Notes: generated from the letters alone by a model not told the origin. A DNA stretch of 64,000 nt from an uncultured bacterium (GCA_963753285.1 CAVWBT010000011.1:69354-133353), one strand, 5' to 3'; shown: positions 3,748 through 61,793, numbered from the stretch's first letter. Program-made: numbers and translations.

Positions 3748-4635
3748 TCAGCCTCGAGCGGCAGGGTGACGCGAGCGGGATCCGGCTCGCTGAATGAGGC
3801 TGACGATCCCGAATCCGATCACCACCAACACCAGGACGGTGAGTGCGCTGTCATCGGGGCCGAGCAGGCTCCGGTCGACGTCCTGCCACGGCCAGAGTGC
3901 TCTGAGCGACCCGATCATGAGTCCGACGAGGGCTGCCATGGTCCGGTCGTGATTCGTCGAGAGCAGCCTGCGAAGCAGCGTCGCGAACGATCCGAGGCCG
4001 GCGATCGCGCCGAGGGCAAATACCGCGACGTACGCCAGATCGAGGTCTCGCACCGCTTCGAGGGTCGGCTCGTAGAGACCCAGGACGAGCAGGAGGAACG
4101 AGCCGCTCACACCCGGCAGGATCATGGCGCAGATCGCCACGGCTGCACCGGCAAACGCCATCCACAGCGCAGGGTCCTCGATCGTCCCGCTCGGCAGGCC
4201 AGACAGAAAGAAAGCCGGTACCGCGAAGATGAACGCCGTCATCACCGCCGGATATCCCGGGTTGGGAATGCGATTCCACGGGATGGCGATCGACGCGCCG
4301 ACCAGACCCAGGAACAGCGCACGACTCTCGGTCGGATAGCGCTCGAGCAGGTCGGGGACGAAGACCGATGCGATGCCGATTGCGGCTCCGATGCCTCCGA
4401 TGAGCGGAAGGATGAAGCTCCACTGGATGGACCTGAACTGCTCGGCGGCTTGGGAACCGTTTCCCCGCACGGCTGCGAGGATCATGTGGAACCCCTGCGA
4501 GATCGCCGTCAGGAGCTGTTCGTAGATCCCCATGATCAAGGCCATGGTTCCCCCGCTGACCCCAGGAACGGCGTCCGCCGCCCCCATCACCAGGCCTTGG
4601 AGGACATGGCGACCGGGTTGCGTCGCTGAGTCCAT
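3748..4635 (-). CDS. DUF368 family membrane protein
   Basis: GVSGGTMALIMGIY-type motif and multiple TM helices. Start trimmed to the ATG at 4635. Confidence 0.7.
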   Translation of the reverse strand: MDSATQPGRHVLQGLVMGAADAVPGVSGGTMALIMGIYEQLLTAISQGFHMILAAVRGNGSQAAEQFRSIQWSFILPLIGGIGAAIGIASVFVPDLLERYPTESRALFLGLVGASIAIPWNRIPNPGYPAVMTAFIFAVPAFFLSGLPSGTIEDPALWMAFAGAAVAICAMILPGVSGSFLLLVLGLYEPTLEAVRDLDLAYVAVFALGAIAGLGSFATLLRRLLSTNHDRTMAALVGLMIGSLRALWPWQDVDRSLLGPDDSALTVLVLVVIGFGIVSLIQRAGSRSRHPAARG

Positions 4636-4744
4636 CCGAATCAGGTTACGTCGCGCACGGCTGGGCTCTGACCACCCACCGATGGTGCTGCCGGCGGTGA
4701 CCGGCTGTCCGATCCAACCCGCTCGGCTCACCGGCTCCTGGCGG

Positions 4745-7206: not shown

Positions 7207-7262
7207 TCCGAACCCAGGGTTGCTGACGACACAGGATGTCGATTTCAGGTCAAGGTTCGCCG
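7207..7262. repeat. GC-rich palindromic REP-like element, copy A (GCGAACCCAGGGTTGCTGACGACA...TCAGGTCAAGGTTCGCC)
   Basis: About 55 bp with terminal inverted motifs CGAACC/GGTTCG. Highly similar copies are at 8706-8760 (inverted orientation) and 32884-32938. Confidence 0.6.
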
Positions 7263-15605: not shown

Positions 15606-16556
15606 TCACCGAGTGTCGGCGCGGGCGGCGCGCAACACCTCGTCGATCGGTGACGTGGCGAGGTCGCCGAGTTCCTGGACGTAGTCGTAGCCGAACCGGC
15701 CCTTGATGCACAGGTTGCCGTGGGTGACGGAATGGTCGAGCGGTGAGGTGACCTTGACGATCCGGTTGTCCTGGACGTGGAGTTCGAGGTTGCAGCCGAT
15801 GGCGCAGTACGAGCACACGGTGCGGGTCACCGTCTGCTCGTCTTCGCGCCAGATGCCCGCCCGGCGCATCTCGTATTCGGAACGGAACTGCAGCGCACCC
15901 GTCGGGCACACGCCGACGCAGTTGCCGCAGAAGACGCAGGCCGAGTCGGTGAGGGGAGTGTCGAGCTCGGTCGAGATCCTGGCGTCGAAGCCGCGTCCGG
16001 CGACTGCAATGGCAAAGGTGTTCTGAGCCTCCTCACCGCACGCCTGGACGCACTTGTAGCAGAGGATGCAGCTGGCGTAGTCCCGGATGTACAGGGCGTT
16101 GTCCACCTTGACGGGCTGGTCGACGCTCTCGGCGGTCGTGCCGTCGGGCTCTGGGTGGTGGCCGGCGTGACGGTGATCCCTGTCGTCGTGCGGACCGGAC
16201 GGTGGCCCGTAGCGAGACGAGTCGACGCCGTAACGCTCCATCCAAGGAGCCATCTCGCTGTTCGAGAGGTCGGCGGAGGAGTCGAGGAACTCCAGGACCA
16301 TCTTGCGGGAGTGGCGGACCCGTTCGGAGTCGGTGTCGATGACCATCCCGTCTTCGACCTTGCGCGAGCATGACGGGACGAGCGTCCGGGATCCTTCGAC
16401 CTCCACCACACACACCCGACAGGCATTGACCGGCGTGAGCGTCGACACCCAACACAGGGTCGGCTGCTCGCTCCCGATCTCCCGACACGCGTCGAGGATG
16501 GTCGACCCTTCGGCCACGTCGACCCGGGTGCCATCGATGGTCACCGAGACGGTCAT
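15606..16556 (-). CDS. NuoG/HylA-like iron-sulfur subunit: 2Fe-2S ferredoxin, 4Fe-4S clusters and a C-terminal molybdopterin-oxidoreductase Fe4S4 domain. This is the detached N-terminal module of formate dehydrogenase alpha.
   Basis: Cys clusters CxxC...C and CILCYKCVQAC, CVFCGNCVGVCP, CSYCAIGCNL. It ends just after the Fe4S4 domain. ATG at 16556. Confidence 0.8.
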   Translation of the reverse strand: MTVSVTIDGTRVDVAEGSTILDACREIGSEQPTLCWVSTLTPVNACRVCVVEVEGSRTLVPSCSRKVEDGMVIDTDSERVRHSRKMVLEFLDSSADLSNSEMAPWMERYGVDSSRYGPPSGPHDDRDHRHAGHHPEPDGTTAESVDQPVKVDNALYIRDYASCILCYKCVQACGEEAQNTFAIAVAGRGFDARISTELDTPLTDSACVFCGNCVGVCPTGALQFRSEYEMRRAGIWREDEQTVTRTVCSYCAIGCNLELHVQDNRIVKVTSPLDHSVTHGNLCIKGRFGYDYVQELGDLATSPIDEVLRAARADTR

Positions 16557-16563
16557 GCTCGGT

Positions 16564-16598
16564 CCACGTTCCACGTTGCACGTTTCACGTTCCACGTC
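16564..16598. repeat. heptanucleotide tandem repeat, 5 x (N)CACGTT (coding-strand sense GGACGTG/GAACGTG/AAACGTG/CAACGTG/GAACGTG), 8-42 nt upstream of the hylA-like start codon
   Basis: Read directly from ggtCCACGTTcCACGTTgCACGTTtCACGTTcCACGTcc. Confidence 0.8.
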
Positions 16599-16933
16599 CT
16601 CTCGGCAGCTGCGTCGATGGAACCTGCAGCAGGTAGGCGTCTCCGGCTTCGGTGCGTGTGGCCCGGCTCCTGTGCCCGGGAGACCCGGCCGGAGAACGGG
16701 ACTGGTTGGGCCCAACTGTGCGAGGGCGCGCCGGTAGGTGATGTCGGGTGTCGGGGTGGTGCGTTGCGGGCGAGGCAAGCCTCGCCCCTACACCTCGTCG
16801 TCCGCCGTACCGACGACCGACGACCGACGATCGGCAACTTGCGTCGCAGGGGCCGTCCAGGGGTAGGGGCGGCCGCCTGCGGCACCCGCAGCCCGGGCCG
16901 TCCGACCCACCGAACCCGGTCCATCGTCAAGCT

Positions 16934-16964
16934 TCTGTCACGCATCTGTCATCTGTCATCTGTC
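16934..16964. repeat. heptanucleotide tandem repeat TCTGTCA x4 (one interrupted), overlapping the stop codon of the NuoEF-like gene
   Basis: Read directly: tctgtcacgcatctgtcatctgtcatctgtc. Confidence 0.75.
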
Positions 16965-18707
16965 GAGAAGCCCCAGCCTGATCGCCGACTGGATGGCGGT
17001 GGCGGCGGTGTGGCCGAGGCCACAGATCGAGGCGTCCTTCATCGCCCGGTCGATGTCGTCGATCAGGTCGGCTTCGAGCGGTGATCCGCCAGTCAGATTG
17101 CGGGCCAGTGCCTCTTCGAGTCGAACAGTGCCGACCCGGCAGGGGACGCATTGGCCACACGACTCGTCGCGGAAGAAGCGGGCAATCCGCCGGGCGACGG
17201 CCTTCATGTCGGCCGAACTGTCGTAGACGACCACCACGCCGGAGCCCAGGCTGACCCCGGCGGCGCGGCTGTCTTCGAACGTGAGCGGCAGATCCAGCAT
17301 GTCGGGACCAACGAAGCTGCCCGCTGCTCCGCCCAGCAGGATGGCGGTGAGGTCGTCGGGCGGTCCGCCGGCGAAGTCGAGCAGTTCTCGGAGCGTCGTC
17401 CCGAAGTCGACCTCGTACACCCCGGGCCGATCGATCGCTCCGCTGAGACAGAACAGCCTGGTCCCCGTCGAGTCCGGTGTGCCGGTCTCGGCGAATGCCT
17501 CTCCGCCGAGCAGCACGATGTCGAGCACGTTGACCAGGGTTTCGACGTTGTTGACGACGGTGGGTTTGCCGAACAAGCCTGCCTCGGTGGGGAACGGCGG
17601 CTTCTGGCGTGGCTCGCCGCGGAAGCCTTCGATCGAGTTGAAGAGGGCGGTCTCCTCGCCGCAGATGTAGGCGCCCTGCCCCTGGCGGATCTCGATGTCG
17701 AACCGGATGCCCTCGCCGAGGATGTCGTCGCCGAGGAGCCGGGCCTCGATCGCCTGGTCGATGGCGTTCTGGAGCGCGTCGGCGGCATCGGGATACTCGC
17801 CGCGGACGTACAGGTAGCCCTGTTCGGCGCCGATGGCGAAGCCGGCGATCGTCATCGCTTCGATGACCGAGAACGGGTCACCCTCCAAGATCGTGCGGTC
17901 CTTGAAAGTGCCCGGTTCGGATTCGTCGGCGTTGCAGATGAGATATCGGGTCTCCGAGTCCGAGTCGGCTGCGCCCTGCCACTTCACACCGGTCGGGAAG
18001 GCGGCTCCGCCCCGCCCCCGCAGACCCGATGTCTTGACCTCGTCGATGACCAGATCCGGACCGATCTCGAGAGCCCGCTCGAGAGCGGCGTAGCCGCCGT
18101 GGTCGCGATACGAGTCGAGGCGTGCGGGATCGACGGTGCCGATCCGGTCGAGGATGTCGATCGATCGCCTCGGTTTCGCGGGTGAACGTCGTGGCGGTTC
18201 GTCGCCTGCCAGGGCTGCCTCGATCGCCTCGGCCGTGGCCGGAGCGATCACGACATCTGGCCGGCCCGCTCGCTGGACGAACGCCCCCGACCCGTAGTCG
18301 CATTGACCGAGGCAGGGACTCGAAGCCACATCGTCGCGTTCTCCCAGCTGGGCCAAGACGGCCTCGCCGCCGCTCGCGCGGCAGGCCGAGTCGTCACAAA
18401 CGTGTGCCATCCGCTGCGGCCGTGGGTCGACAGACAGCAGCGCATAGAAGGTGGCAACCGAGTAGACCTCGGCAGGTGGCACCGCCAGCCGGCGGCTGAT
18501 CTCGTCGATGGCACCTGGGGAGATCCATCCGATCTCGCCCTGGACTGCCGCGAGGGCGGGGAGGAGCAGGTGGCGGAGCGCGCGCGCCCGGTGACCACCG
18601 GCGACTGCCCGACCCGAGCTGATCTCGATTTCGGCCTCGGGCACGGCCGTGCGGACGGCGCGTTGCTCCGCTTCGGTGGCATCCGCGCCGATCAGCCTGA
18701 GATCCAC
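16956..18707 (-). CDS. NuoE-NuoF fusion protein (NAD(H)-binding flavoprotein with an N-terminal thioredoxin-like 2Fe-2S domain; FdsB/HylB-HylC-like)
   Basis: NuoE Cys motifs (CDDSACRASG...CLGQCDYG), then the NuoF FMN/NADH site (GLRGRGGAAFPTG, ICNADESEPGTFKDR) and 4Fe-4S site (ESCGQCVPCR). Confidence 0.85.
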   Translation of the reverse strand: MDLRLIGADATEAEQRAVRTAVPEAEIEISSGRAVAGGHRARALRHLLLPALAAVQGEIGWISPGAIDEISRRLAVPPAEVYSVATFYALLSVDPRPQRMAHVCDDSACRASGGEAVLAQLGERDDVASSPCLGQCDYGSGAFVQRAGRPDVVIAPATAEAIEAALAGDEPPRRSPAKPRRSIDILDRIGTVDPARLDSYRDHGGYAALERALEIGPDLVIDEVKTSGLRGRGGAAFPTGVKWQGAADSDSETRYLICNADESEPGTFKDRTILEGDPFSVIEAMTIAGFAIGAEQGYLYVRGEYPDAADALQNAIDQAIEARLLGDDILGEGIRFDIEIRQGQGAYICGEETALFNSIEGFRGEPRQKPPFPTEAGLFGKPTVVNNVETLVNVLDIVLLGGEAFAETGTPDSTGTRLFCLSGAIDRPGVYEVDFGTTLRELLDFAGGPPDDLTAILLGGAAGSFVGPDMLDLPLTFEDSRAAGVSLGSGVVVVYDSSADMKAVARRIARFFRDESCGQCVPCRVGTVRLEEALARNLTGGSPLEADLIDDIDRAMKDASICGLGHTAATAIQSAIRLGLLDR

Positions 18708-18974
18708 TCAGCACCACCCCCGGACGAGATCTTCGGGGTATTCAGTGTTTGTCCCCCCTTCGGGGGGACGGACCGCCCGCTGTCCTAGCCAGGGGGACGG
18801 CGAACCCGCGAGTATGGACTGAGTGATCGGGCGGTCAGGGGGGCATTCAACCTGGGTGACGGTGAGACGCAACGCCCCCTCGGCTTGCTGGCGCAAGCCT
18901 GTTCCCCCGGAGGGGGAACAGACAATCCGCCGCTTGCATGGGGTCGGGGTGAGCGAAGGCATTCCGGTCATGGG
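18708..18974 (-). other. structured intergenic region with several perfect GC hairpins (candidate sRNA/terminator/REP cluster)
   Basis: Hairpins GTCCCCCC-TTCG-GGGGGAC (18761-18779), GCTTGC-TGGC-GCAAGC (18884-18899) and CTGTTCCCCC-GGA-GGGGGAACAG (18899-18921). No ORF is present. Confidence 0.25.
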
Positions 18975-20881
18975 TCAGATCTTCTCCACTCGGATGGCGG
19001 TCGCTTTGAAGTCGGCGGTTCCCGACTTCTGGTCCCAGGCATCGATGGTCAGGACGTTCACGTCGACGTCGTCGGGGAAGTGGATCGGCATGAACATGAG
19101 GCCCGGGCGGAGCGCGTCGCTGATCAGCACGGGGACTTCGATCGAACCGCGGCGCGATGTGACCCGCACCGTGTCTCCGTCGGCGATCTCGAGTTCGTCG
19201 GCGTCGCGCCGGCAGAGCTCGAGGGCGCCACCCGGGCGGCGTGGCGAGGAGTAGCCGCCGGATTGGACCCCGGTGTTGTACGAGTCGAGGTGGCGCCCGG
19301 TCGTGAGCCGGTATGGATAATCGGGTGCGAGTGCATCGGCGGGCAGGACGTGCTCGACCGGGGTGAACTGGGCGGACCGGCCGACGTCATCGGTCCAGAG
19401 CCTCGAGTGGAGGAACTGCTCGCCCGGGATGGGACTCGTCGTAGCACGGCCACTGGATCCCGCCGAGCTGCTCGAGGCGGTCGTAGCGCATTCCCGCATG
19501 AGGCGGGGACAGGCTTCTGCACTCGTCCCAGATCTCTTCGGGTCGTGGCATGCCCCAGTCGAATCCGAGCCGCTGGGCCATCAGGTGGAGGATGTCGGTG
19601 TCGGTCTTGGCCTCACCGGGCGGTTCGAGTGCTTTGCGGACGAGTTGCACGCGACGCTCCGAGGACGTGACCGTCCCATCGGACTCGCACCAGTCGGCGG
19701 CGGCCGGGAAGACGACGTCGGCCAGCTCGGCGGTCTTGGTGAGGAACATGTCCTGGACGACCAGGAATTCGAGTTCTCTCGAGCGCCCGCCGGGTCACGG
19801 CGACATCCGCCTCGGATTGGGCCGGGTTCTCGCCGATGACGTACAGCGCCCGTAGCTTGCCCGCTTCCATGGCCTCGAACATCTGAGTGAGATGCCATCC
19901 GCGCTTGGGGTTCAGCTCGGCGCCGTAGGCGGCCTCGAACTTGGCGAGATGTTCGGGGTTCTCGAGGTCCTGGAAACCCGGGAGCTTGTTCGGGAGTGCG
20001 CCCATGTCGCCGCCACCCTGGACGTTGTTCTGGCCGCGGATCGGAACGAGCCCGGATCCGTAGCGACCGACGTGACCGGTCAGCAGTGCGAGGTTGATCA
20101 ATGCGAGGACGTTGTCGGTTCCGTTGTGGTGTTCGGTGATGCCGAGTGTCCAGCAGATCTGCGCCGTCGGGGCTTTGGCGTAGTTGATCGCCATCTCTTC
20201 GATCAACTCAGCCGGTACGCCGGTCTCTCGGCTGGTGCGTTCGAGGGTCCATTCCTCGACGCTCGCCGCGTAGGACTCGAAGTCGCTGGTGGCCCGCTCG
20301 ATGAACTCGGTGTTGGCGAGTCCCTGTTCGATGATGACCCGAGCCATGCCGTTTGCGAGGGCGATGTCGGTCCCGACGTCGATGCCGAGCCAGACGTCGG
20401 CCCACTGGGCGGTCTCAGAGCGGCGCGGGTCGACGCAGTACATCCGGGCGCCGTTGTGGATGCCCTTCAGTACGTGGTGGAAGAAGATCGGATGGGCGGC
20501 GCGGGCGTTCGAGCCCCACATGATGATGAGATCGGTGTTCTCGATCTCCTCATAGGAGCTGGTTCCACCGCCTGCGCCGAGGACGGCCACCAGACCGGCG
20601 ACCGAAGGAGCGTGTCAAGTGCGGTTGCAGCTGTCGATGTTGTTGCTGCCCATGGTGACCCGAATGAACTTCTGTGCCAGATAGTTCAACTCGTTGGTCG
20701 CCTTCGAGCAGCTGAACATGCCGACGGCCGTGCCGCCGTGCGTGTCGCGCACCTCCGACAGGCCTGCGGCTGCCCGGTCGAGGGCTTCATCCCATGATGC
20801 GGCCCGTAGAACCCCGTCTTCGCGAACGAGTGGCGTGGTCAGTCGAGTCCGTGGTCGGCGTGAACGTGTCGTCGTCATCAT
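18975..20881 (-). pseudogene. fdhA: formate dehydrogenase catalytic (molybdopterin) subunit, selenocysteine-containing. The reading frame is interrupted by two single-base indels near 19774-19780 and 19432-19437, so this is either a pseudogene or assembly error.
   Basis: Four ORF fragments (20615..20929, 19613..20590, 19387..19749, 18975..19499) together span a complete FdhF-like protein. Fragments 1 and 2 are in the same frame across the TGA at 20615-20617, where the NNIDSCNRT-U-HAPSVAGL motif matches the FDH-H ARVUHGPSVAGL selenocysteine site. ALE(K)LEFLVVQD and DESHPG/EQFLHSRLW continue in shifted frames. The start is the ATG at 20881 (MMTTTRSRR...) with a GGAGAGGAGG RBS. Confidence 0.75.
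20584..20604 (-). promoter_or_regulatory. bacterial SECIS-like hairpin 10 nt downstream of the in-frame UGA (CGGUCGCC-GGUCU-GGUGGCCG)
   Basis: 8-bp stem with G-U wobbles and an apical GGUC(U) loop. Its position and shape are analogous to the E. coli fdhF SECIS. Confidence 0.55.
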
Positions 20882-21064: not shown

Positions 21065-21397
21065 TCAGTCGCACACGATGACGCGACCCTCATCGAGTCT
21101 GAACTTGGCGACCACTGATGCGCTCGTGAGCTCGTCGGGGAGATCCGAAGCGATGTAGCTATCGGGCGCTGCCCATATCGATCGGGTGCTCGAGGGGAGC
21201 AGCTCCATGACAGCGTCCCAATCGGGGTTGAAGTCGATGAGCACGCCTGCGCCTCCTTCGTCGCCGCACGCTTCTTCATAGGAGATCGCATCCGTCTCCC
21301 GGACCTGGTCCGGCGTGACCGAAATCGGACCCTGCGAACACCCTGCGGTCACGGCTAGGCAAACCGCGATGAGACCTGAGCGCAGCAGATTGGCCAT
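21065..21397 (-). CDS. small lipoprotein, hypothetical
   Basis: Signal peptide plus lipobox (LIAVCLAVTAGCSQ). Confidence 0.5.
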   Translation of the reverse strand: MANLLRSGLIAVCLAVTAGCSQGPISVTPDQVRETDAISYEEACGDEGGAGVLIDFNPDWDAVMELLPSSTRSIWAAPDSYIASDLPDELTSASVVAKFRLDEGRVIVCD

Positions 21398-21498
21398 CCC
21401 CACCAGGTCGCCGCTTCCACCTCCCGAGCTGCGACGCGACCGATAACCGACAACTGATGACCGAAGACGCCGATGCGAAGCGAGGCCAGAAGCGAGGC

Positions 21499-23256
21499 TC
21501 AGAACAGGCCCACCACGTCGCCGTCGTCGTTTATGTCGACCTTGAGGTAGGCCGGGGTGGCGCCGAGTCCGGGCATCGTCCGCATCTCCCCGAGCAGCGG
21601 ATAGATGAACCCGGCGCCGACGCTGGCGCGAACCTCTCGGACGGGGACCGTGTAGCCGGTCGGGGCGCCCTTCATTGCGGGGTCGTGGCTGATCGACAGG
21701 TGGGTCTTCGCCATGCAGATCGGCAGATACCCGAACCCGGCCTCCTCGAACTCGCGGATCTGTTGGCTGGCGAGTGGGGAGTACTCGATCTCACCCGCCC
21801 CGTAGATGTCGCGGCAGATGATGTTGATCTTGTCGGTGATCGACATGTTGAGGGGATACAGGTACGAGAACTCGTTCGGCTCCTCACACGCTTGGACCAC
21901 CGCTTCGGCCAGTGCCACAGCTCCTTCGCCGCCCTTCGCCCAGTGTTCGGCGAGCACCGCGTCGAACGCTCCGGCCGCGAGCGCCTTCTCCTTGATGAGG
22001 TTGATCTCGGCCCACGAGTCGGTGGGGAACGAGTTGATCGCCACTACCACCGGCACGCCGAATCGCTTGGCGTTCTTGATGTGTGCCTCGAGGTTCGACA
22101 TGCCGGCGTTCAACAACGCGAGGTTCTCCTCGGTGTACACCTTGTCGAGCGGGCGGCCGGCGACCACCTTCGGGCCACCCCCGTGGGTCTTGAGGGCCCG
22201 GACGGTTGCGACGAGCACCACACAGTCGGGAGTGAGGCCCGATGTCCGGCACTTGATGTCCATGAACTTCTCCATGCCCATGTCGGCTCCGAACCCCGAC
22301 TCGGTGATCACGTAGTCGCCGAGGTGGAGGGCGACCCGGTCGGCCAGGATCGAGCTGTTGCCATGTGCGATGTTGGCGAATGGCCCGGCATGCACCATGG
22401 CCGCCTGGCCTTCGAGCGTCTGCATGATCGTTGGGTGCAGCGTGTCCTTCATCAGCACCGCGACGGCTCCTGCCACGCCGAGGTCTTCGAGTGTCAGCGG
22501 CTTCCCTTCCTTCGACGTCCCGAACACGACGCGACCGACCCGCTCTCTGAGGTTGCGCAGCGCCGAGGCGTAGCTGTCACCGTCGACCAGCGCCAGGATG
22601 GCCATGAGCTCGGACGCGACGGTGATGTCGAACCCGGTCTCGCGCGGCCGGCCGTCGGCCTTGCCGCCCAGTCCGACGATGACGTTTCGGAGGGTGCGGT
22701 CGTTGATGTCCACGACCCGGTTCCACTGGAGCTTGAACGTGTCGATCGACAGCCTGGTGAGACCGAGGTCGGCGAGTTCGGCGTCGTGGAGGCGTGACTC
22801 GTGGTACCAGCGTGCGTCGATGGCGGCGGCGACCAGATTGTGGGCAGCGGTTATGGCGTGGATGTCGCCGGTGAGGTGGAGGTTGAACTCGTCCATCGGG
22901 ATCACCTGGCTGTAGCCACCACCGGCGGCGCCGCCTTTGATGCCGAACGTCGGTCCCATCGATGGCTGGCGGATGGCGGCGATGGCGTTCTTGCCGATCT
23001 TGCCGAGACCCTGGGTGAGCCCGATCGTGGTCGTCGTCTTGCCCTCGCCCAGCGGTGTCGGCGTGATGGCGGTCACGTCGATGTACTTGCCTTTGGGGTT
23101 GGCGCCGATCCGTTTGAGAGCGTCGAGATGCACCTTGGCCTTGGTGTGGCCGTAGGGGATGACCTCCTCGGGCAGCAGACCGACGCGTTCGGTGAGTTCG
23201 GAGATGGGGATGACGTCGGCCGCTCTGGCGATGTCGATGTCGCTGGGGACTGTCAC
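21499..23256 (-). CDS. fhs: formate--tetrahydrofolate ligase
   Basis: Full-length FTHFS-like translation (PTPLGEGKTTTTIGL P-loop). Start chosen at the GTG at 23256 (VTVPSDIDIARAA...) with a GAGGA RBS. The first in-frame ATG would add about 30 atypical residues. Confidence 0.85.
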   Translation of the reverse strand: MTVPSDIDIARAADVIPISELTERVGLLPEEVIPYGHTKAKVHLDALKRIGANPKGKYIDVTAITPTPLGEGKTTTTIGLTQGLGKIGKNAIAAIRQPSMGPTFGIKGGAAGGGYSQVIPMDEFNLHLTGDIHAITAAHNLVAAAIDARWYHESRLHDAELADLGLTRLSIDTFKLQWNRVVDINDRTLRNVIVGLGGKADGRPRETGFDITVASELMAILALVDGDSYASALRNLRERVGRVVFGTSKEGKPLTLEDLGVAGAVAVLMKDTLHPTIMQTLEGQAAMVHAGPFANIAHGNSSILADRVALHLGDYVITESGFGADMGMEKFMDIKCRTSGLTPDCVVLVATVRALKTHGGGPKVVAGRPLDKVYTEENLALLNAGMSNLEAHIKNAKRFGVPVVVAINSFPTDSWAEINLIKEKALAAGAFDAVLAEHWAKGGEGAVALAEAVVQACEEPNEFSYLYPLNMSITDKINIICRDIYGAGEIEYSPLASQQIREFEEAGFGYLPICMAKTHLSISHDPAMKGAPTGYTVPVREVRASVGAGFIYPLLGEMRTMPGLGATPAYLKVDINDDGDVVGLF

Positions 23257-26943: not shown

Positions 26944-27025
26944 TCTCGGAGGATTCAACCACAACGATGGCCGCCCTGTCCGGGGCGGCCATCGTTGTTT
27001 GTCTCCCCTTCGGGACGCCAAGCGT

Positions 27026-27170
27026 GTAGGGGCGGGGCTCGCCCCGCCCGCGACCCGGGCCGCGATGTCAGACGATCGGGACCCCAGGCGCGAGGCGTGG
27101 CGCAACGGGCCTGTTGGTGATCGACGGGTGTGACGGGGTGCGCGGCGGGCGACGTGAACGTCGCCCCTAC
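27026..27170. repeat. imperfect inverted-repeat element with GTAGGGGCG ... CGCCCCTAC termini, plus an internal GGGCGGGG-CTCG-CCCCGCCC hairpin
   Basis: Member of the dispersed GTAGGGGCG palindrome family (see 16777-16801, 16863-16891, 38191-38216, 53791-53816). It sits in a convergent intergenic region. Confidence 0.5.
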
Positions 27171-32883: not shown

Positions 32884-32938
32884 CGAACCCAGGGTTCCTG
32901 ACGACACCTGGTGTCGATCTCGGCGCAAGGTTCGGACG
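32884..32938. repeat. GC-rich palindromic REP-like element, copy C
   Basis: GCGAACCCAGGGTTCCTGACGACACCTGGTGTCGATCTCGGCGCAAGGTTCGG, related to 7207-7262. Confidence 0.55.
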
Positions 32939-33050: not shown

Positions 33051-34274
33051 GTGACGCTATCAGGGCACACGCCGACACGGTCGGGGCAGGGGAGCACGGC
33101 GCCGGACACGGATCCGATCCAGCAGCCCGTTTCGTCTCTTCCCGAGGGGTCGACCGAGTGCAGCGATGCATTCGACGCCCGTGTGGAGGAGGTCCGCAGA
33201 CTGTACGGCTCCGGCGGTGCCTATCTCTTCGGGCGGCTGGAGGATGTGATTCGGCGGCGGCTCGGCCTGGCTGCCAGGAGCGGGACGAACGCAGCACTCG
33301 GGGGACTGATGAGTGTGGGCATCAGACTGGGCCTCGCGCTGCTGGTGACGGCGCTCGTCGGGCAGTGGTCCGACATTCCGTGGGGCCGGTGGGCGGTCAT
33401 CCTCGTGTACTTCGGGTTGTTCGATGCCACACTGCCGTGGAGATTCCCGCCTCTCGACGAGCCCCTGTCGCCAAGACAACGCCGTTTCGTCGAGGACATG
33501 ACCCCGCTGCTTCCTGCGATCGTTCGAGAGCGCGACGTGCAGGATCTGGCGGACTTCGTGCGGCGTTGGAATCGGCCGTCAGTCTCCGCAGCAGCCGGTG
33601 TGCTCGTGACGGCACTCATGTTCGGAGCCGGCTGGTTGTTCACGCCTGCGGCGATGTCCGAGCTCCCAGCCGGCAGCGTGGTCCTGTTGGCTTTCCTGCT
33701 CTTCGACGTCGGGGCGGTGCTCGGAGGTCTCTTCGAGTGGGCGTTCGTAGCACGCCAGGCCCGGTACGACCATCATCTGTTCTGGCCGAGTCCATCCGAC
33801 TCGCCTGAAGTTCGGAGGGCAACACAGATGTTGAGCCTGAAGGGCACGGCGGGTTGGATCACCGGCGTTCTGGTGCTCACGTTGGTCCTGGTGTCGTGGG
33901 ACTCGGCACTGGTGCTACCCCTGTCTGGGTGGTTCATCGGGATTGGCTATCTGGTCGTGATCGGCTCGGCTCTCGGAAGTCGTGCCAGCATCCGCAAGAT
34001 CGTCGAGCGGGCCCGCCACCAGCAATTAGGAGAGCTTCGGCAATGTATCGAGCCCTTCAAGTCACGCTTCAGCGACTTGTCCACACAGGAGCTCGAGCAT
34101 CTGCGGGGGCTTCTCTTCCTCCACGACAGGATTCGTGATGCGCCTGCCAGTCCCTCCACCACCCACACCCTCTTGCGCGCCGCAGCGGGATTGATCCTCC
34201 CCACCATCGTGTTCGTGATCACCGTGCTGGGCGAGGTGACGGTCGAGCGGCTCCTCGACGCCATTCTCCCTTGA
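33051..34274 (+). CDS. 7-TM membrane protein, unknown family (paralog 1 of a tandem array)
   Basis: GTG start within the conserved leader GAGGTGACTCGTG. The conserved C-terminus is PTIVFVITVLGEVTVERLLDAILP. Confidence 0.7.
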   Translation: MTLSGHTPTRSGQGSTAPDTDPIQQPVSSLPEGSTECSDAFDARVEEVRRLYGSGGAYLFGRLEDVIRRRLGLAARSGTNAALGGLMSVGIRLGLALLVTALVGQWSDIPWGRWAVILVYFGLFDATLPWRFPPLDEPLSPRQRRFVEDMTPLLPAIVRERDVQDLADFVRRWNRPSVSAAAGVLVTALMFGAGWLFTPAAMSELPAGSVVLLAFLLFDVGAVLGGLFEWAFVARQARYDHHLFWPSPSDSPEVRRATQMLSLKGTAGWITGVLVLTLVLVSWDSALVLPLSGWFIGIGYLVVIGSALGSRASIRKIVERARHQQLGELRQCIEPFKSRFSDLSTQELEHLRGLLFLHDRIRDAPASPSTTHTLLRAAAGLILPTIVFVITVLGEVTVERLLDAILP

Positions 34275-34455
34275 GCCGGGCATCGACGGCCTGCGATGGG
34301 GTGAACATGGACCGAGAGCGTCCTACCGCATCGTGCGCTCATGCTGCGGCCGCGATTGGGCCTCATGCCTCTGGCCGGACCGAACCAGTTCGGGTACTTA
34401 ACGGGTTGGGCGCCATTCCGATGCCGGGAGCAGGTGAGTGGCGCCGAGGTGGCTC

Positions 34456-35706
34456 GTGACTGAAACACCGAAAGCGTTGACCGAGTCGGAAGTGCTGGAT
34501 CGACCTCTCTTCGATGCGGGTGTGACACCGGAGTCCGTGTTCTTCTCGGCCGGTGTCGAACCTCGACGCGATGAGTCATCGGACCGGCGGGAGCGGATCG
34601 AAGCGGGTGTGGAGGAGATCGGCAGACGATTTGCGTCCATCGACGTGTTTCTTCTTCCCGGTCTCGAGGATCGGATTCGGCGCAGACTCGGGCTGGCACC
34701 TCAAAGCGCTGGCGGAGCTGCGCTGTCGGGGCTGGTCGGTGTGGGGATCAGGCTCGGGCTCGTGTTGTTGGTCACTGCGGTGGCCGGACAGTGGACAGCG
34801 GTTGCCTGGGGTCAGTGGGTGGCCATCATCATGTGGTACGGGGTGTGGGATGCCACGCAGCCGTGGAGAACTCCGCCGGTCGACGCCTCGATCCGGCCGA
34901 GCATGAGGCGATACCTGGACAACTGGTTTGCGTTACCCACGACCATCGTCCGGGAATCAGACGTGCGAGACCTCGCCGACTTCACCGGGCGCTGGGTGCG
35001 GCTGCGCGTCTCCGCGCCGGTGGGGGTTGGTGTGGCAGCCCTCATGCTGGGCACCTGCTGGCTGTTGACACCTACCGCCTTGAGCGAGCTTCCGGTCGGG
35101 AGCGTCGTCTTGCTGGCCTTTCTGCTCTACGACTTCGGGGCACTCATGGTCTTCGGGGACTTCTTCTGGTGGGGGTTCACGGCGCGCCAAGCCCGCTACG
35201 ACCACCACTTGTTCTGGCCGAGCCCCGGCGACTCGCCCGAAGTCGGAAAGGCGATGCGGATGCAGCCGCTGCTGGCCAACGCCTGGTGGATCACCGTCTA
35301 TCTGGCGCTGACCCTGGTCTTGTTGTCCTGGGACTCCCTGCTTGTCGTGCCACTGGCATTGGGTTTCATCGTGATCGGCTACCTCGTAACGATCGCTGCA
35401 GCCATCGGGAGCCGGGCCGGCGTCCGCAAGATCATCGACGGAAGCCGCCGGCAGCGCCTGGCCCGATTGCGACATCGCATCGATGCCTTCGAATCGCGTT
35501 TCGAGGACCTCTCGAGGAAAGAGTCGGCGCGACTCCGTGATCTCCTCTTCCTCCACAACGCCATCCGCGACGCTCCCACCTCATCTCCGCACGGGAGCAC
35601 ACTCGCTCGTACTGCGGCCGCCCTGATCCTTCCCACGATCATGTTCGTCGTCACGGTCTTCGGTGAGGTGTCTGCGGAGAGGTTCCTGGACGCGATCCTC
35701 CCCTGA
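34456..35706 (+). CDS. 7-TM membrane protein, unknown family (paralog 2)
   Basis: About 60% identical to paralog 1 after a divergent N-terminal region of about 60 aa. Start set at the GTG matching the conserved leader (GAGGTGGCTCGTG). The ORF track begins 18 nt earlier. Confidence 0.65.
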   Translation: MTETPKALTESEVLDRPLFDAGVTPESVFFSAGVEPRRDESSDRRERIEAGVEEIGRRFASIDVFLLPGLEDRIRRRLGLAPQSAGGAALSGLVGVGIRLGLVLLVTAVAGQWTAVAWGQWVAIIMWYGVWDATQPWRTPPVDASIRPSMRRYLDNWFALPTTIVRESDVRDLADFTGRWVRLRVSAPVGVGVAALMLGTCWLLTPTALSELPVGSVVLLAFLLYDFGALMVFGDFFWWGFTARQARYDHHLFWPSPGDSPEVGKAMRMQPLLANAWWITVYLALTLVLLSWDSLLVVPLALGFIVIGYLVTIAAAIGSRAGVRKIIDGSRRQRLARLRHRIDAFESRFEDLSRKESARLRDLLFLHNAIRDAPTSSPHGSTLARTAAALILPTIMFVVTVFGEVSAERFLDAILP

Positions 35707-35880
35707 GCCCGAAGAGGCTGAACCGATGGCCTCCATCGGTGATTGGTCCTGGTGCGGCGCTGCGAAGCAGTGCCTCCAGGCAGGAGTTCGGGTCCTCTTG
35801 CTCTAGCCGGGGCGAATCCGGGAGCCACTATTTGAGTAGCGGGAGATGTCGATTCGCACGCCGAGGTGCGGAGGTGATTC

Positions 35881-36655
35881 GTGCACGGCACGCCGGTTCC
35901 GACGGGAGCACACAACCGCCGCTCGAGCAGGGGATCGGAAAGCAGACACCGAGGGGGACCACTGGCGCCGGACGTGAGTCGCCGTTACGCACGTCGACAA
36001 GCGTTCGAAGGCTACGAACAGCAGCCCCGTGGCCGAAGCGAGAGGACGGTTCGGAGGACATCGTGGACGGAGATTCGCGATTGCTGTACGGCTCGACTCG
36101 GATTTCCTCTCGCTCTGGGAAGATGCCATCCGCCGTTGGATCGGGCTTTCTCCGGCGAGTTCGGGAGCCGCGGCGTTGGCCGTTCTCGATGCACTCAGGC
36201 ATCAGGCTGGTGTACACGGTCGATTGCCGGTTCTGGACCACCACCTTCCTGATCCTGACCTTGGTCCTGGTGTCCTGGGACTCGCCGGTGGTACTGCCGC
36301 TCGCCGTGGCCTTCGTGGTGATCGGCTACCTCACCACCATCGGCCTGACCGTCTCCAACCGTGCAAGCGTCCGGAAGATCATCGAGCGAAGCCGGGCCCA
36401 ACGGCTGACCGCGCGCTGCGGAGCGAGATCGACACGTTCGAGTCGAGCTTCGTTCGTCTTTCGCCGGAGGAGTCGGGGCATCTCCGGGATCTCATGCTCC
36501 TCCACGACAAGGTCCGGGACGCTCCGGGCGCTCCGACTCGCTCCAGCACGCTCGTGCGCACGGCTGCTGCGTTGGTCCCCCCAACCATCGCATTCGTGAT
36601 CACCGTCTTCGGTGAGGTGTCGGCCGAACGGATCCTCGAGGCGGTCCTTCCCTGA
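35881..36655 (+). pseudogene. decayed paralog 3 (internal deletion of about 190 codons plus a frameshift)
   Basis: The conserved leader and GTG are at 35881. Homologous segments are split between ORF fragments 35881..36252, 36029..36655 and 35739..36599. The conserved C-terminus AFVITVFGEVSAERILEAVLP is present. Confidence 0.55.
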
Positions 36656-36813
36656 GTTTGCAGACACCCGTCATCGGTGCATGCCTGCGGGTCGCCGGTC
36701 GCGTAGTCAGGAGATCGGGCCCTCCTCCTCTGGTGCGATCGAGACCGGTGTGTGAACGTTCGAGTTGCGGAGCGACGTCGTCGCGTTCCGCCAAAGCGGC
36801 GCAGAGGTGAGTC

Positions 36814-38074
36814 GTGATACGAACACCCCCCGCAGCGAGAGACACGCGGATCGCCGGGTCCGCGTCGGAGGTCCTTGCGGCCGCCGGAGCGGAGGTGGGT
36901 TCCCATTCGGAGCCATCGCAGCCATGGTCCGAGTTGCGGCTCGAACGCATGGAGGCGTTCGATGCCTGCGTGGAGGACATTCGCAGAACGTACTTCTCCA
37001 GCGGCATCGACTGGCTTCCCAGATTGGCAGATCGCATTCGGAGGCGGGCCGGTCTGGATGCGAGGAGTGTTGGGTCTCTGCGTTGGCGGGAATCATCCCC
37101 GCCGGTCTCAGGCTCGCCGTCATGCTGGCCGCCACCGTTCTGTCGGGGAGTGGTCAGCGAGTTCCATGGGGTCCATGGGCGGCAATCGTCGCTCTTCTCG
37201 CGCCTGAATGATGCGACGACTCCACATGGTACCGCCTCTCGACGCTCGTCGCGGACCGCGCTTGGCGGAGACTCGTCGAGGACTGGACGGCGATGGTCCC
37301 GACCATCCCCCGGGAGTCCGACCTTCGCGACCTCGCACGCCTCACGAGACGGTGGATGCGGACGTCGATGTCGGTGGCGGCCGGGGTTGCAGTAGCGAGC
37401 ATGATGTTGTTCGTCAGCTTGGTGTACGCCCCGGTTGCCCTGCGCACACTTCCGATCGGTAGCACTGTCCTGCTGTTTCTGGTGCTCTACGAGTTTGGGG
37501 TGAACGTTGTCTTCTGGGGAAACCTCTTCAACCGGGCGTTCATGGCTCGCGAAAGCAGATACGAGCATCGCTGTACTGGCCGAGTCCGGCCGACTCGCTC
37601 GAGGTTCGCAAGGTCATGCGGAAGACGAGCAGCCAGGCGTTCATCGCCGGTTGGTGGATCACGGTCTTCCTGGTCATGTCCGTCGTACTGGTCGGTTGGA
37701 GCTCTCCGCTGGTGCTGCCGCTGGCGTTGGGCTTTGTGACGATCGGCTACTTGACCACGATTGGGCTGGCGATCAGCAATCGTGCCAGCGTTCGGGTGAT
37801 CGTCGAACGGAGCCGCCAGCAGGCGATTGGGACCCTGCGGCAGCGTATCGATGTCTTCGAATCACGCCTTGTCGAGCTTGCTCCGCAGGAAGCTGAGGAG
37901 CTCGAGCGTTTGCTGTTCCTGCACGACAGGATTCGCGACGCTCCGTCATCTCCCGCCGCCACCCATGCGATCGCGAGCACCGCTGCCGGGCTGCTCCTGC
38001 CGACCATCGCCTTCATCATCACCGTGTTCGGCGAGGTGTCCGCCGAACGCCTGCTCGACGCCATCCTCCCGTGA
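36814..38074 (+). pseudogene. decayed paralog 4 (at least three frame disruptions; a 1-nt deletion is identifiable at about 37570)
   Basis: The full length is alignable to paralogs 1 and 2 but is distributed over four ORF fragments (36814.., 36765.., 37293.., 37616..). Confidence 0.55.
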
Positions 38075-38190
38075 TCGGAAGCAGGCGACCGGCCGCGCCT
38101 CCCTGGGTGACGTCTACGGTGTGCGGGCCGTACGCAATACGCATGAGCCTTCGCGCCAGTGGGTGGTCATCGAGTCTGGCGGGATGCGCT

Positions 38191-38216
38191 TAGGGGCGAG
38201 GCGAGCCTCGCCCCTA
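38191..38216. terminator. perfect 11-bp-stem hairpin TAGGGGCGAGG-CGAG-CCTCGCCCCTA (GTAGGGGCG family) between convergent genes
   Basis: Read directly from the sequence. It lies between the paralog array and the BMC operon. No T-tract follows. Confidence 0.45.
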
Positions 38217-38489
38217 CCGATCGCTCGTCTGCACGTCGTCGACGATACCGACGACCACCGCCCGGATCGGTCCGACCTTCTTCTCCATGATCTGGCGTGC
38301 GCCGGTGCCCTCGTCGAGGATCAGCACGGTTTCGCCGGGCCCGGCCCCGACGACATCGACCGCGATCACGTAGCCGCCGCTCGGCTCACCATCGGGGGAG
38401 AGATAGTCGCAGAACAGCAGCCGTTGGCCGTCGAAGGTGGGCTCGTTGATCGTCGAGACGACCGTGCCTGCGACCCGGGCGAGCTTCAT
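38214..38489 (-). CDS. BMC vertex protein (BMC-P, EutN/CcmL/PduN family), copy 1
   Basis: [21 protein letters not shown]...VDVVGAGPGETVL. Confidence 0.8.
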   Translation of the reverse strand: MKLARVAGTVVSTINEPTFDGQRLLFCDYLSPDGEPSGGYVIAVDVVGAGPGETVLILDEGTGARQIMEKKVGPIRAVVVGIVDDVQTSDR

Positions 38490-38782
38490 CGCTTCCGCCG
38501 TTTCTTCGGCAGGGGAGAGACGTCGACCTGATCGACGATGCCGACGATGGCGTGATCCACCGGTACGAACGGCTCGGGCATCGCCTGGGCGGCTTCCCGC
38601 GAAGCTACGAAGTAGACGAGTTCGCCCGGGCCCGCCATGGCGACGCCGTCGGCGGCGATCACCGGTCTCCCGGTCGGCTCCTGATCGCGGGTGAGTGGCT
38701 GGACGATCAGGAACCTCACCCCCTCGAGGTCGGGGGTCTTTTCCGATGCGACCACCGTGCCAATGACCTCGCCGAGTTGCAC
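38486..38782 (-). CDS. BMC vertex protein (BMC-P), copy 2
   Basis: (V)QLGEVIGTVVASEKTPDLEG...ADGVAMAGPGELV. GTG start inferred. Confidence 0.65.
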   Translation of the reverse strand: MQLGEVIGTVVASEKTPDLEGVRFLIVQPLTRDQEPTGRPVIAADGVAMAGPGELVYFVASREAAQAMPEPFVPVDHAIVGIVDQVDVSPLPKKRRKR

Positions 38783-38784
38783 GA

Positions 38785-39366
38785 TCAGCGCTCGATCCGG
38801 GAGGCGAACCGGCCATCGCCGCCGATGTTGACTGCCATCTCGTCGTGCAACCGGGGAATCACTCGCCGGCCGATCAGTCCGCCTTCGACCTGCGCAGATC
38901 CGTGTTCCACCGCGGCGTCGATTTCGGTCAACGTCCCGGAGAAGAGCACGTAGCCCTTTCCGCCGAGATCGTCGGCCAGATAGATCTTGAGCATGTCGAC
39001 CTCGGCGCCCTTCAGGCCGGCGTCGGCGGCGCGGATCACGTCTGCAACCGTCTCGGTCTCGATGATCCCGAGTGACTCGCCATGACGGGACACCTCGGCA
39101 CCGCCAAGTCCTCCGACGAGTGCGGGGTGTGGGTCGGGAAGAAACATCGCAGACTGCAGGTGCTCGCCGTTCCTCAGCTCGGCGGCAGCCAGCGCCTCCT
39201 CGACGTCGCCCACCGATCCCGACACCAGCACCAGGTACTTGCCGGGATGCACGGTTCCGGCGTGGATCACCTGGAGCGGTGCACGCTTGACCATGTCGTC
39301 GCCGGACTCGATCCCGGCGGCGATCGAGTCGTATTCGAAGAGGGCGATGGCGGTGCCGAGCTCCAT
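38785..39366 (-). CDS. BMC-T shell protein with tandem BMC domains (PduT-like)
   Basis: Two BMC-domain halves (IALFEYDSIAAGIESGDDMVKRA / LGIIETETVADVIRAADAGLKGAEV). Confidence 0.75.
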   Translation of the reverse strand: MELGTAIALFEYDSIAAGIESGDDMVKRAPLQVIHAGTVHPGKYLVLVSGSVGDVEEALAAAELRNGEHLQSAMFLPDPHPALVGGLGGAEVSRHGESLGIIETETVADVIRAADAGLKGAEVDMLKIYLADDLGGKGYVLFSGTLTEIDAAVEHGSAQVEGGLIGRRVIPRLHDEMAVNIGGDGRFASRIER

Positions 39367-40823: not shown

Positions 40824-40826
40824 CGG

Positions 40827-41114
40827 CTATTTGTGGTAACGCTCATCGCCTCCCACCTCCCAGGAGTCCACGATCGCCATGACGACGGCGTCGCATGGCC
40901 GCTCGTGGGTTGCCTCGGTCTGCCGTGCGGAACTGCCGCTGGCGTACATCACGACTTCGCCTACACCGGCGCCGACGGCGTCGATCGCCACCACATGGCC
41001 ACCCGTCGGGGAGCCGTCGACGTCGATCTGCTCGAGCAGCAGGAACTTCAGCCCGTCGAGCTTGGGCTCCTTCTTGCTGGCAACGACGGTGCCTGCCACG
41101 CGTGCGAGAAGCAT
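40827..41114 (-). CDS. BMC vertex protein (BMC-P), copy 3
   Basis: [21 protein letters not shown]...[21 protein letters not shown]. Confidence 0.8.
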
Positions 41115-41127
41115 CGGTGCCCTCCGC

Positions 41128-41418
41128 CTATTCGGTGTCTCCTCGACGGCCGAGCGGCAGGATCGCGTCGATCGACTCGTGGGGGCGTGCGATGATGTGG
41201 CTCGAGATGACCTCGCCGACTCGCTCGGCGCCACGCAGGCCGGCCTCGACGGCTGCCTTGACCGCAGCGACGTCGCCGCGGACCACGGCAGTCACGTATC
41301 CGCCGCCGGTCTCCTCATAGGACACGAGCTCGACCTTCGCCGCCTTCACCATGGCGTCGGCCGCCTCCACCATCGCCGGGAAGCTGCGTGCTTCGATCAT
41401 TCCCAGTGCATCTGCCAT
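41128..41418 (-). CDS. BMC-H hexamer shell protein (PduA/EutM family)
   Basis: [32 protein letters not shown]. Confidence 0.85.
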
Positions 41419-41457
41419 TCCGGTTCCTCCTCAGGTACCTCTCGTCGTCTGTTCCGA

Positions 41458-42084
41458 TCACTTCTGTTCTCTGCCTTCGAGGCCTTCCAGAGCGGCGACC
41501 GCAGCCCGCCACCCGACGTCGATGTCCGCCTCTTCGCCACCGAGGTAGACCCGGCCGACCGCGCCGAAGGCGCGGACCTCCAGCACGTTGATGTTGGCGG
41601 CCTTCTCCGCCTCGTTTGCGGCGAGCGCCGCATAGGCGGCCGGCCCGCACTCCATCACGTACAGGGTCTGGCCCGGGGTGATCATCTGGCCGTGCCGCAT
41701 CCGGTTGATGAGCTGGGCCTGGTGGTCGTCGATGTTTCTGACGATCTGGCTGGACAGGATCTCCGGCTTCAGTCGGTCGGATTCTTTCATGCCGATGGCG
41801 TCGAGGATGGCGGTGCCCGCCCCGCGCGTCTCCGCCTGTTCGGGGGAGTGGACCTCGAGCAGTCCGAACACACGCTCGACGATCTGCATGCCGGGCTTGA
41901 CCTTGTTCGACTTGAGAGCGATGTCGGTCAGACGGTTGATCTCGATGCCCGGCGAGATCTCGACGAACAGCGCCGATTCGTGGGCGAGGGGGAGGAAGCC
42001 GGACGCAGTGGTGCCGATGAACGCCGCGTATTGGGGTTGCAGGCTGTCGAGGAACGCAAACGACCGCAGCTCAATATTGCTCAT
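41458..42084 (-). CDS. BMC-T shell protein with tandem circularly permuted BMC domains (EutL/PduB-like)
   Basis: About 208 aa with two permuted BMC-like halves. ATG at 42084 with a GGAGG RBS. Confidence 0.6.
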
Positions 42085-43485: not shown

Positions 43486-43556
43486 CGCCGCGGACACTAG
43501 CGCTGGCTGACGGGTGCTGCGGCTCCGACGCGAGCCGGGTGGGGCGAGCGTGCACG

Positions 43557-61784: not shown

Positions 61785-61793
61785 GCACCCCAC

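Follow-up and report, generated by a model that had tools for sequence, protein, structure and literature searches.

A predicted selenocysteine-dependent formate dehydrogenase with its alpha subunit divided between the Fe4S4 and molybdopterin domains

Described enzymes and the divided alpha subunit

In every structure of a metal-dependent formate dehydrogenase (FDH) that we retrieved, the proximal [4Fe-4S] domain and the pterin site are held on one chain. FDH1 of M. extorquens (7E5Z, 7VW6, 8J83) is a cytoplasmic, NAD-linked enzyme with one linear relay to flavin mononucleotide (FMN). In FdsABG(D) of R. capsulatus and Cupriavidus (6TGA, 6TG9, 9WXB), FdsA is a single chain of 958 amino acids (aa), and FdsG and FdsB are separate proteins. 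Here we describe a locus in 64,000 nucleotides (nt) of DNA from an uncultured bacterium (GCA_963753285.1, CAVWBT010000011.1:69354-133353; this whole stretch is referred to below as the window) in which the alpha subunit is divided into two proteins precisely at the boundary of the Molybdop_Fe4S4 and molybdopterin domains. The four genes that concern us here are all encoded on the minus strand:

18975-20881, minus strand: catalytic subunit (alpha-C), about 634 aa with an in-frame TGA read as selenocysteine (Sec) and two 1-nt insertions removed
16956-18707, minus strand: beta subunit, a NuoE-NuoF fusion of 583 aa with 2Fe-2S_thioredx (PF01257), Complex1_51K (PF01512), SLBB and NADH_4Fe-4S (PF10589) domains
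15606-16556, minus strand: Fe-S subunit (alpha-N), 316 aa, with Fer2_4, two ferredoxin-type 4Fe-4S motifs and Molybdop_Fe4S4 (residues 242-294)
21499-23256, minus strand: formate-tetrahydrofolate ligase (FTHFS), the upstream neighbour, 585 aa (PF01268, 836 bits)

Judged from their sequence, the three genes downstream of FTHFS very likely encode one cytoplasmic, complex-I-type, NAD(H)-linked and non-bifurcating FDH that depends on Sec and has an alpha subunit made of two polypeptides. We favour an enzyme of the Fdh1AB/FdsABG kind because the beta subunit is a fusion like Fdh1B and has no extra clusters, and because the set of clusters is of the M. extorquens FDH1 type.

The position of the split was given alike by Pfam domains, by alignment to FdsA and by coverage of the TIGR01591 profile. 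In the PDB comparison, residues 3-295 of alpha-N aligned to R. capsulatus FdsA 25-305 and residues 11/12-631 of alpha-C to FdsA 306/307-931, the two halves being contiguous on FdsA (25-305, 306-931); residues 12-634 of alpha-C aligned to FdhH 60-688. On TIGR01591, alpha-N covered positions 1-53 and alpha-C positions 52-672. Thus the Molybdop_Fe4S4 domain (positions 1-52), which is usual on the Fdh-alpha chain, is absent from the alpha-C polypeptide and sits on alpha-N, where it is followed by a 22-aa tail and the stop codon. Alpha-C passed the profile (673 bits, cutoff 666.25) solely in its frameshift-corrected form with U read as C. Pfam assigned it Molybdopterin (PF00384, 238 bits) and Molydop_binding (PF01568, 94 bits) domains and no Fe-S domain. 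Instead of a single alpha chain that joins the Fe-S N-terminus to the catalytic part, the locus has two genes with the NuoEF gene between them. In fused relatives of about 900 aa the halves are joined at the same point (residue 277 followed by 281 in P0250); the nearest of these are about 35-46% identical, as found in a representative-library search in which most matches were fragments.

A sequence-only reading of this stretch had proposed the split, an Fe-S gene ending just past Molybdop_Fe4S4, the NuoE-NuoF fusion, the order catalytic gene, NuoEF gene, Fe-S gene, and an FTHFS gene some 600 bp upstream that ties the locus to one-carbon (C1) metabolism. All of these held, the order also in relatives, and the gap between FTHFS and the catalytic start is 617 nt. 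The catalytic gene fared less simply. It does carry molybdopterin domains without Fe-S modules and starts with an ATG at 20881 preceded by GGAGG, but 20881-18975 is not one continuous open reading frame (ORF), as the ORF list and three-frame translation revealed, since it contains an in-frame TGA and two frameshifts. These, a hairpin resembling a selenocysteine insertion sequence (SECIS), intergenic spacers of 267 and 399 nt, and the lack of a His/Cys [4Fe-4S] module were points that the sequence-only reading did not contain.

Alpha-N has domains for one [2Fe-2S], two ferredoxin-type [4Fe-4S] and one Molybdop_Fe4S4-type [4Fe-4S] cluster, with 16 invariant Cys residues in all. Its first 90 residues matched the NCBIfam HoxU model (E = 7e-39), with a score of 134 bits against a cutoff of 333. 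Two further segments of the protein were of interest:

16110-16290: Cys-free RD-x4-GHH segment, residues ~90-148, seen in the conservation profile
15609-15674: C-terminal tail ELGDLATSPIDEVLRAAR, residues 295-316

The RD-x4-GHH segment is kept in all operon-carrying phyla and stands where FdsA and NuoG have the His/Cys [4Fe-4S] module; it gave no match in the PDB search. The tail ELGDLATSPIDEVLRAAR is nearly invariant across the Acidimicrobiia clade, while other phyla have short variable tails instead, and it could be a clade-specific docking peptide.

In the beta subunit, a NuoE-like [2Fe-2S] part is joined to a NuoF-like part with FMN, NADH, SLBB and N3-type [4Fe-4S] sites, the combination that characterizes complex-I-type FDHs. 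The motifs GRGGAAFPTG, GAYICGEETAL and ESCGQCVPCR were read from its translation. Compared with the NCBIfam NuoF and NuoE models, beta scored 447 bits with TIGR01959, below the NuoF cutoff of 559 bits. The chain stops 5 residues after the N3 domain, and Pfam found no extra ferredoxin domains beyond it. Of the listed PDB matches, M. extorquens Fdh1B (7e5z_B) alone gave an alignment that begins in the NuoE-like N-terminal region (23-577 versus 32-557).

Beta thus resembles that of M. extorquens FDH1, a NuoE-NuoF fusion of about 570-580 aa aligned from the N-terminus to the end. By sequence, the resemblance extends to the alpha cofactors: bis(molybdopterin guanine dinucleotide) (bis-MGD) together with three [4Fe-4S] clusters, one [2Fe-2S] cluster and no cluster A5, as indicated by the 16 invariant Cys. 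In one source (PMC10869683), the M. extorquens alpha subunit is given three [4Fe-4S] clusters and one [2Fe-2S] cluster without the A5 cluster of R. capsulatus FDH, and A5 of FdsA is described at the dimer interface. Similarity to M. extorquens FDH1 was moderate (126 bits for alpha-N, 414 bits for alpha-C). The locus differs from that enzyme in having alpha as two polypeptides, cut past the proximal-cluster domain, in having the catalytic gene upstream of beta, and in the Cys-free RD-x4-GHH segment, which is specific to the split family. FdsABG, which shares the complex-I-type module, provided the best PDB match of alpha-N (~153-155 bits). Unlike the proteins here, however, FdsA is undivided, its FdsG and FdsB partners are not fused, and it binds the extra [4Fe-4S] cluster A5, for which the matching Cys residues are absent from alpha-N; no FdsD- or FdsC-like gene was found in the window.

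Two other systems share parts of the layout. The genes of the HoxF-HoxU diaphorase form a pair, first a NuoE-NuoF fusion and then, encoded separately, a NuoG-N-terminal-like Fe-S protein, much as beta is followed by alpha-N. The partner of HoxF-HoxU is, however, a [NiFe] hydrogenase, whereas here it is a Mo/W pterin enzyme, and alpha-N has an additional C-terminal Molybdop_Fe4S4 domain. The best PDB matches of alpha-C were E. coli FdhH (1FDO, 492 bits) and FdhF of the T. kivui hydrogen-dependent CO2 reductase (HDCR; 7QV7, 447 bits), in which the active-site U-H and the arginine motif RGQNNVQG are also present. Both of these enzymes have their own N-terminal Fe4S4 domain; the alignment of alpha-C begins only at residue 60 of FdhH and residue 62 of HDCR FdhF.

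The in-frame UGA and the downstream hairpin

Two features near the start of the catalytic gene bear on its active site:

20615-20617, minus strand: in-frame TGA at the active-site Sec/Cys position, in the motif SCNRT-U-HAPSVAGL
20584-20604, minus strand: SECIS-like hairpin with an 8-bp stem in the window and a GGUCU apical loop, starting 13 nt past the TGA

Of 70 related loci, 69 have TGA as the active-site codon, and the one that does not is misaligned and fragmented. SCNRT-U-HAPSVAGL and PIRGQNNVQGGGD of alpha-C align with CARLCHAPTVAGL and PLRGQNNVQGA of HDCR FdhF, so that alpha-C has both the Sec/Cys ligand followed by His and the Arg-containing RGQNNVQG motif. The active-site ligand of M. 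extorquens FDH1 is Cys; here it would be Sec, encoded by UGA.

In the alignment of the 70 loci (columns 15-33), a 6-bp core stem was found family-wide and the GGUCU loop was invariant. Pairing was possible in 92.9% of cells, compared with 17-81% for controls in which the 3' arm was slid, and compensatory changes occurred at two pairs (CG<->GC and GC<->AU). A UGA at the Cys/Sec position together with a conserved stem-loop nearby is the arrangement by which selenoprotein genes are recognized. E. coli fdhF likewise has a hairpin with a loop of the GGUC type after its UGA. Rfam gave nothing above the gathering threshold in the window, and no SECIS model was matched; the sole match near the operon was a chance-level 'whalefall-1' hit in the 267-nt spacer (E = 0.14).

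Genes of Sec and cofactor maturation lie next to the operon in some relatives. In locus L044 (72-4891), tRNA-SeC, selA, selB and fdhD precede it; in L049 (31-2843), selA, tRNA-SeC and an AIRS-type selD-like gene do so; and in L058, from P. ammonioxydans, a MobA-like gene lies upstream (3869-4696).

Recurrence of the layout and competing explanations

The distribution of the layout was assessed in a scan of one genome per species, which returned 588 relatives; the best 80 loci were analysed together with four from earlier look-ups, giving 84, and the position of the catalytic gene was scored in the 68 with enough upstream sequence. In 83 of 84 loci the gene immediately upstream of the Fe-S gene was NuoEF, and 67 of 68 had the catalytic gene upstream on the same strand. 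In most loci the Fe-S ORF ends 0-30 aa past the Fe4S4 domain; the catalytic ORF begins 4-12 codons ahead of an RLTxPLVR motif, and no Fe4S4 remnant was present upstream of the catalytic ORF in any locus examined. The best 120 database matches to alpha-N, mostly from metagenome-assembled genomes (MAGs) of Acidimicrobiia, were all stand-alone proteins of 292-392 aa (most 313-346) with 71-95% identity. Their public names are generic ('2Fe-2S iron-sulfur cluster-binding protein', 'YjgC', 'HndD').

Synteny was identical in L001, L002, L004 and L085, with FTHFS (where covered), catalytic, NuoEF and Fe-S genes in that order; the catalytic gene is called as two ORFs in these loci only because of the TGA. 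On the Actinomycetota side, carriers included Acidimicrobiia, a Nitriliruptoraceae genome, Gaiellales and Thermoleophilia, as well as the isolates Pseudonocardia yunnanensis, P. ammonioxydans and Actinomycetospora rhizophila. Further carriers were found among Chloroflexota, Planctomycetota (Gemmata and Isosphaeraceae), Acidobacteriota, Gemmatimonadales and Eisenbacteria. The layout is therefore a conserved architecture in several phyla and not peculiar to this genome, real as the sequence-only reading had it but less singular than that reading implied. An exact look-up of the Fe-S protein of the window returned no record in public assemblies; the closest loci were 76-84% identical in DNA, and the collections held no near-identical relative.

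We propose the following path for electrons. Alpha-C would bind a Mo- or W-bis-pyranopterin whose ligand is the UGA-encoded Sec, decoded by way of the downstream hairpin. Alpha-N would serve as the electron wire, with the proximal [4Fe-4S] cluster in Molybdop_Fe4S4, two ferredoxin-type [4Fe-4S] clusters and one [2Fe-2S] cluster, and beta, with FMN, an N3-type [4Fe-4S] and a [2Fe-2S] cluster, would react with NAD+. In such a three-protein complex, the electrons taken from formate would cross the subunit interface between the pterin and the proximal cluster of alpha-N and then follow the wire to FMN, from which they would reach NAD+. Because FTHFS adjoins the operon, the complex likely takes part in C1 oxidation linked to tetrahydrofolate (THF). 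The simplest role is likely oxidation of the formate derived from formyl-THF; as the last step of the pathway (formyl-THF to formate to CO2), it would follow formation of ATP at FTHFS and would itself yield NADH.

It is also conceivable, however, that the enzyme works mainly as a CO2 reductase that feeds formate to FTHFS for C1 assimilation by the reductive glycine pathway or a folate branch. FDH and FTHFS genes are tightly linked, with 14 Acidimicrobiia-type loci that have FTHFS upstream in the same order and on the same strand, and Sec- and W/Mo-containing FDHs are reversible, the R. capsulatus enzyme being able to reduce CO2. With NADH as donor, on the other hand, the reaction would run uphill (about -430 mV for CO2/formate, -320 mV for NAD+/NADH), Pfam surveys found no other genes of a reductive C1 pathway in the window, and the linkage to FTHFS is limited to part of the family, with FTHFS a divergent neighbour in 7 other loci. 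We consider such a role unlikely. An electron-bifurcating, ferredoxin-dependent enzyme is more doubtful still, although the sequence-only reading had likened the locus to NAD-linked or bifurcating complexes of the HylABC/FdhF2 type with a different split point. The difference in split point stood; the closest characterized systems proved to be FdsABG and M. extorquens Fdh1AB and not the bifurcating HylABC, the likeness to which is weakened because beta has no extra [4Fe-4S] domains. As in HylABC-FdhF2 and related enzymes of the Gottschalkia acidurici type, a NuoG-N-terminal-like Fe-S protein that recalls HylA is separate from a Sec-containing catalytic subunit and has NuoE/NuoF-like partners, and the NuoF part of beta scored highest against HydB subunits of bifurcating hydrogenases (399 bits for 7q4v_B, versus 315 for FdsB). 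HylC, however, is separate and not fused. One report (PMC5736913) describes two further [4Fe-4S] domains in HylB and an Fe-S cluster domain that Hyl-type FdhA keeps as its own, and another (PMC7311640) gives bifurcating beta subunits additional Fe-S domains. A NuoE-NuoF fusion without extra clusters is the layout of the non-bifurcating HydB of S. aciditrophicus and of M. extorquens FDH1 beta. The alignment of beta with HydB ends at HydB position 519 of 599, only 5 residues before beta itself ends at residue 583, leaving no additional [4Fe-4S] domain, and the Fe-S domain that Hyl FdhA keeps is here on the wire subunit and missing from alpha-C. Many carriers, moreover, belong to groups that we take to be mainly aerobes (Pseudonocardia, Gaiella, Acidimicrobiia). 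Bifurcation is therefore highly improbable.

Other alternatives concern the state of the operon in the window, which has four irregularities:

~19778, minus strand: frameshift 1, a 1-nt insertion in GAG[A]GAA, seen in the alignment with L001, L002 and seven relatives
~19425, minus strand: frameshift 2, an extra G in CCCGGGC (CCC[G]GGC), seen in the alignment with seven relatives
18708-18974, minus strand: hairpin-rich 267-nt spacer between the catalytic and NuoEF genes (RNA fold -122 kcal/mol, z = -2.7)
16557-16955, minus strand: 399-nt spacer between the NuoEF and Fe-S genes

The frame upstream of the insertion at 19778 meets a stop at 19613, and both insertions are specific to the window, being absent from all seven relatives. 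The closest relatives, in which the catalytic gene and NuoEF abut, lack the 267-nt spacer, whose fold contains several GC hairpins. The 399-nt spacer is about 250 nt longer than in relatives (at most 146 nt in L001 and L085, and overlapping genes in L002); about 100 nt of it recur near 38152-38256 and 27013-27170, once as an inverted pair. These intergenic insertions may be a small repeat or an element resembling a miniature inverted-repeat transposable element.

That the split and permuted order arose by an assembly error or by a single rearrangement confined to this genome, for which nothing speaks beyond the unusual order itself, can be excluded for practical purposes because the same order and split point recur in dozens of independent assemblies, including isolates and contigs or chromosomes longer than 1 Mb. 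A more serious possibility, which we rate as substantial but short of probable, is that the catalytic gene was truly inactivated not long ago and is now a pseudogene in a locus that is starting to decay, with the NuoEF and Fe-S genes kept as an orphan diaphorase pair. Two independent +1 insertions fall within 1.9 kb, while about 45 other ORFs of the window have full-length Pfam coverage in a single ORF and none needed correction; because those ORFs are intact, two frameshifts in one 1.9-kb gene would be unlikely under a uniform error rate. In addition, the lineage-specific insertions of 267 and about 250 nt break junctions that are tight in L001, L002 and L085. Against inactivation, the corrected segments past each frameshift have 91% and 86% protein identity to L001 (about 83% in DNA), and because this divergence is no greater than that between L001 and L085 there is no sign of relaxed constraint. 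For the same reason a long-decayed pseudogene was rejected, the corrected protein showing no excess divergence. The NuoEF and Fe-S genes are also intact and conserved, and the insertion in CCCGGGC extends a run of G, a typical context of sequencing errors. Frameshift-like breaks occur, too, in the catalytic or NuoEF genes of about 11 other public assemblies (several tblastn pieces in L006, L028, L032, L038, L044, L061, L067, L070, L077 and L081). These are mostly MAGs with contig_-style names, taken to be long-read assemblies, and the breaks look like indel errors, which calls for caution in reading frameshifts in this GC-rich operon. Error in the sequence is a reasonably likely origin of the two extra bases.

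Several observations weigh against a functional three-subunit, Sec-dependent FDH at this locus. Neither selA, selB, selD, fdhD nor tRNA-Sec was found in the 64-kb window by the tRNA scan and Pfam surveys, and the window contains no tRNAs at all by that scan. The two frameshifts and the 267- and 399-nt spacers mean that the enzyme may not be made here. An AlphaFold2 model of alpha-N, built from a 59-sequence alignment, was poor (mean predicted local distance difference test score 53.7), with only the N-terminal 2Fe-2S domain confident. In about 10 loci unrelated genes intervene between the catalytic gene and NuoEF, the order being kept, so that the three genes are not always one transcription unit. 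Examples are L021 (5113-7099) and L053 (3861-6800), from lineages including Ilumatobacteraceae and Chloroflexota, in which NuoEF and the Fe-S gene stay paired. The intervening genes were considered as possible accessory subunits and rejected on the basis of ORF lists and translations: those of L021 are on the opposite strand, and L053 has no convincing same-strand partner.

The components and chemistry of such an enzyme are well known, whereas the split layout is widespread and we found no description of it: a full-text literature search, including a 2026 review of metal-dependent FDHs, gave no mention of an alpha subunit that is divided behind the Fe4S4 domain. We regard as evenly balanced the proposal that these loci represent an undescribed, widespread class of Sec-dependent, NAD-linked FDH (in Actinomycetota, Chloroflexota, Planctomycetota, Acidobacteriota and Gemmatimonadota) in which the proximal [4Fe-4S] domain has moved to the wire subunit. 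If so, the first electron step, from pterin to cluster, would cross a subunit interface, and the catalytic selenoprotein could mature as a free module, with insertion of Sec and insertion of bis-MGD by FdhD, before docking. If many carriers are aerobic, as expected of Pseudonocardia, Gaiella and Acidimicrobiia, the class may offer oxygen-exposed Sec-containing FDHs for CO2 reduction. A conserved natural split at the Fe4S4/pterin boundary would mean that this interface can be non-covalent, and catalytic module, wire and diaphorase as separate genes would form a natural modular system for work on assembly, cofactor and Sec maturation, inter-subunit electron transfer and hybrid CO2-reducing enzymes. 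Because the UGA splits ORF calls and the names of the Fe-S proteins are generic or wrong, the formate oxidation capacity of environmental lineages, Acidimicrobiia among them, may be under-reported, and the link to FTHFS suggests folate-dependent C1 oxidation in the carrier groups.

Neighbouring features of the window

FTHFS, upstream of the operon, is 95% identical over residues 1-585 to its orthologue in L001. The spacer between it and the catalytic gene contains one further entry of the ORF list:

21065-21403, minus strand: small ORF of 112 aa with a lipoprotein-like N-terminus (LAVTAGC)

This ORF, for which Pfam gave no match, probably does not belong to the FDH system; L001 shows no conservation of this stretch of the spacer.

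Elsewhere in the window, a bacterial microcompartment (BMC) locus occupies 38214-43560 on the minus strand, with two EutN/CcmL vertex-protein genes, an aldehyde dehydrogenase (39366-40826), a BMC-H shell protein (41128-41430), an ORF without a match (41458-42150), a DeoC/LacD aldolase (42071-43093) and RpiB (42916-43560); this content suggests a compartment of the sugar-phosphate type. Directly upstream of it, 33777-38075 holds four diverged tandem copies of a unit of about 1-1.4 kb (repeat families D1, D2 and D5; 63-73% identity). The ORFs in this region have no Pfam match and a low codon-usage score, and the region looks like a paralogous gene array. At 61647-61790, a GC-rich, partly palindromic repeat (GCACCCACCCAAAGCCCGGGTGCGTG...) is present in three tandem copies with 46-nt spacing and 98-100% identity, at the upstream end of the ORF of a glycerol-3-phosphate-oxidase-like gene. 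Finally, a 51-nt motif with complementary ends (CGAACCCAGGGTTGCTGACGACAC...CAAGGTTCG) occurs at intergenic positions 7209-7259 and 32884-32934 (84% identical) and may be a regulatory element or a small RNA.

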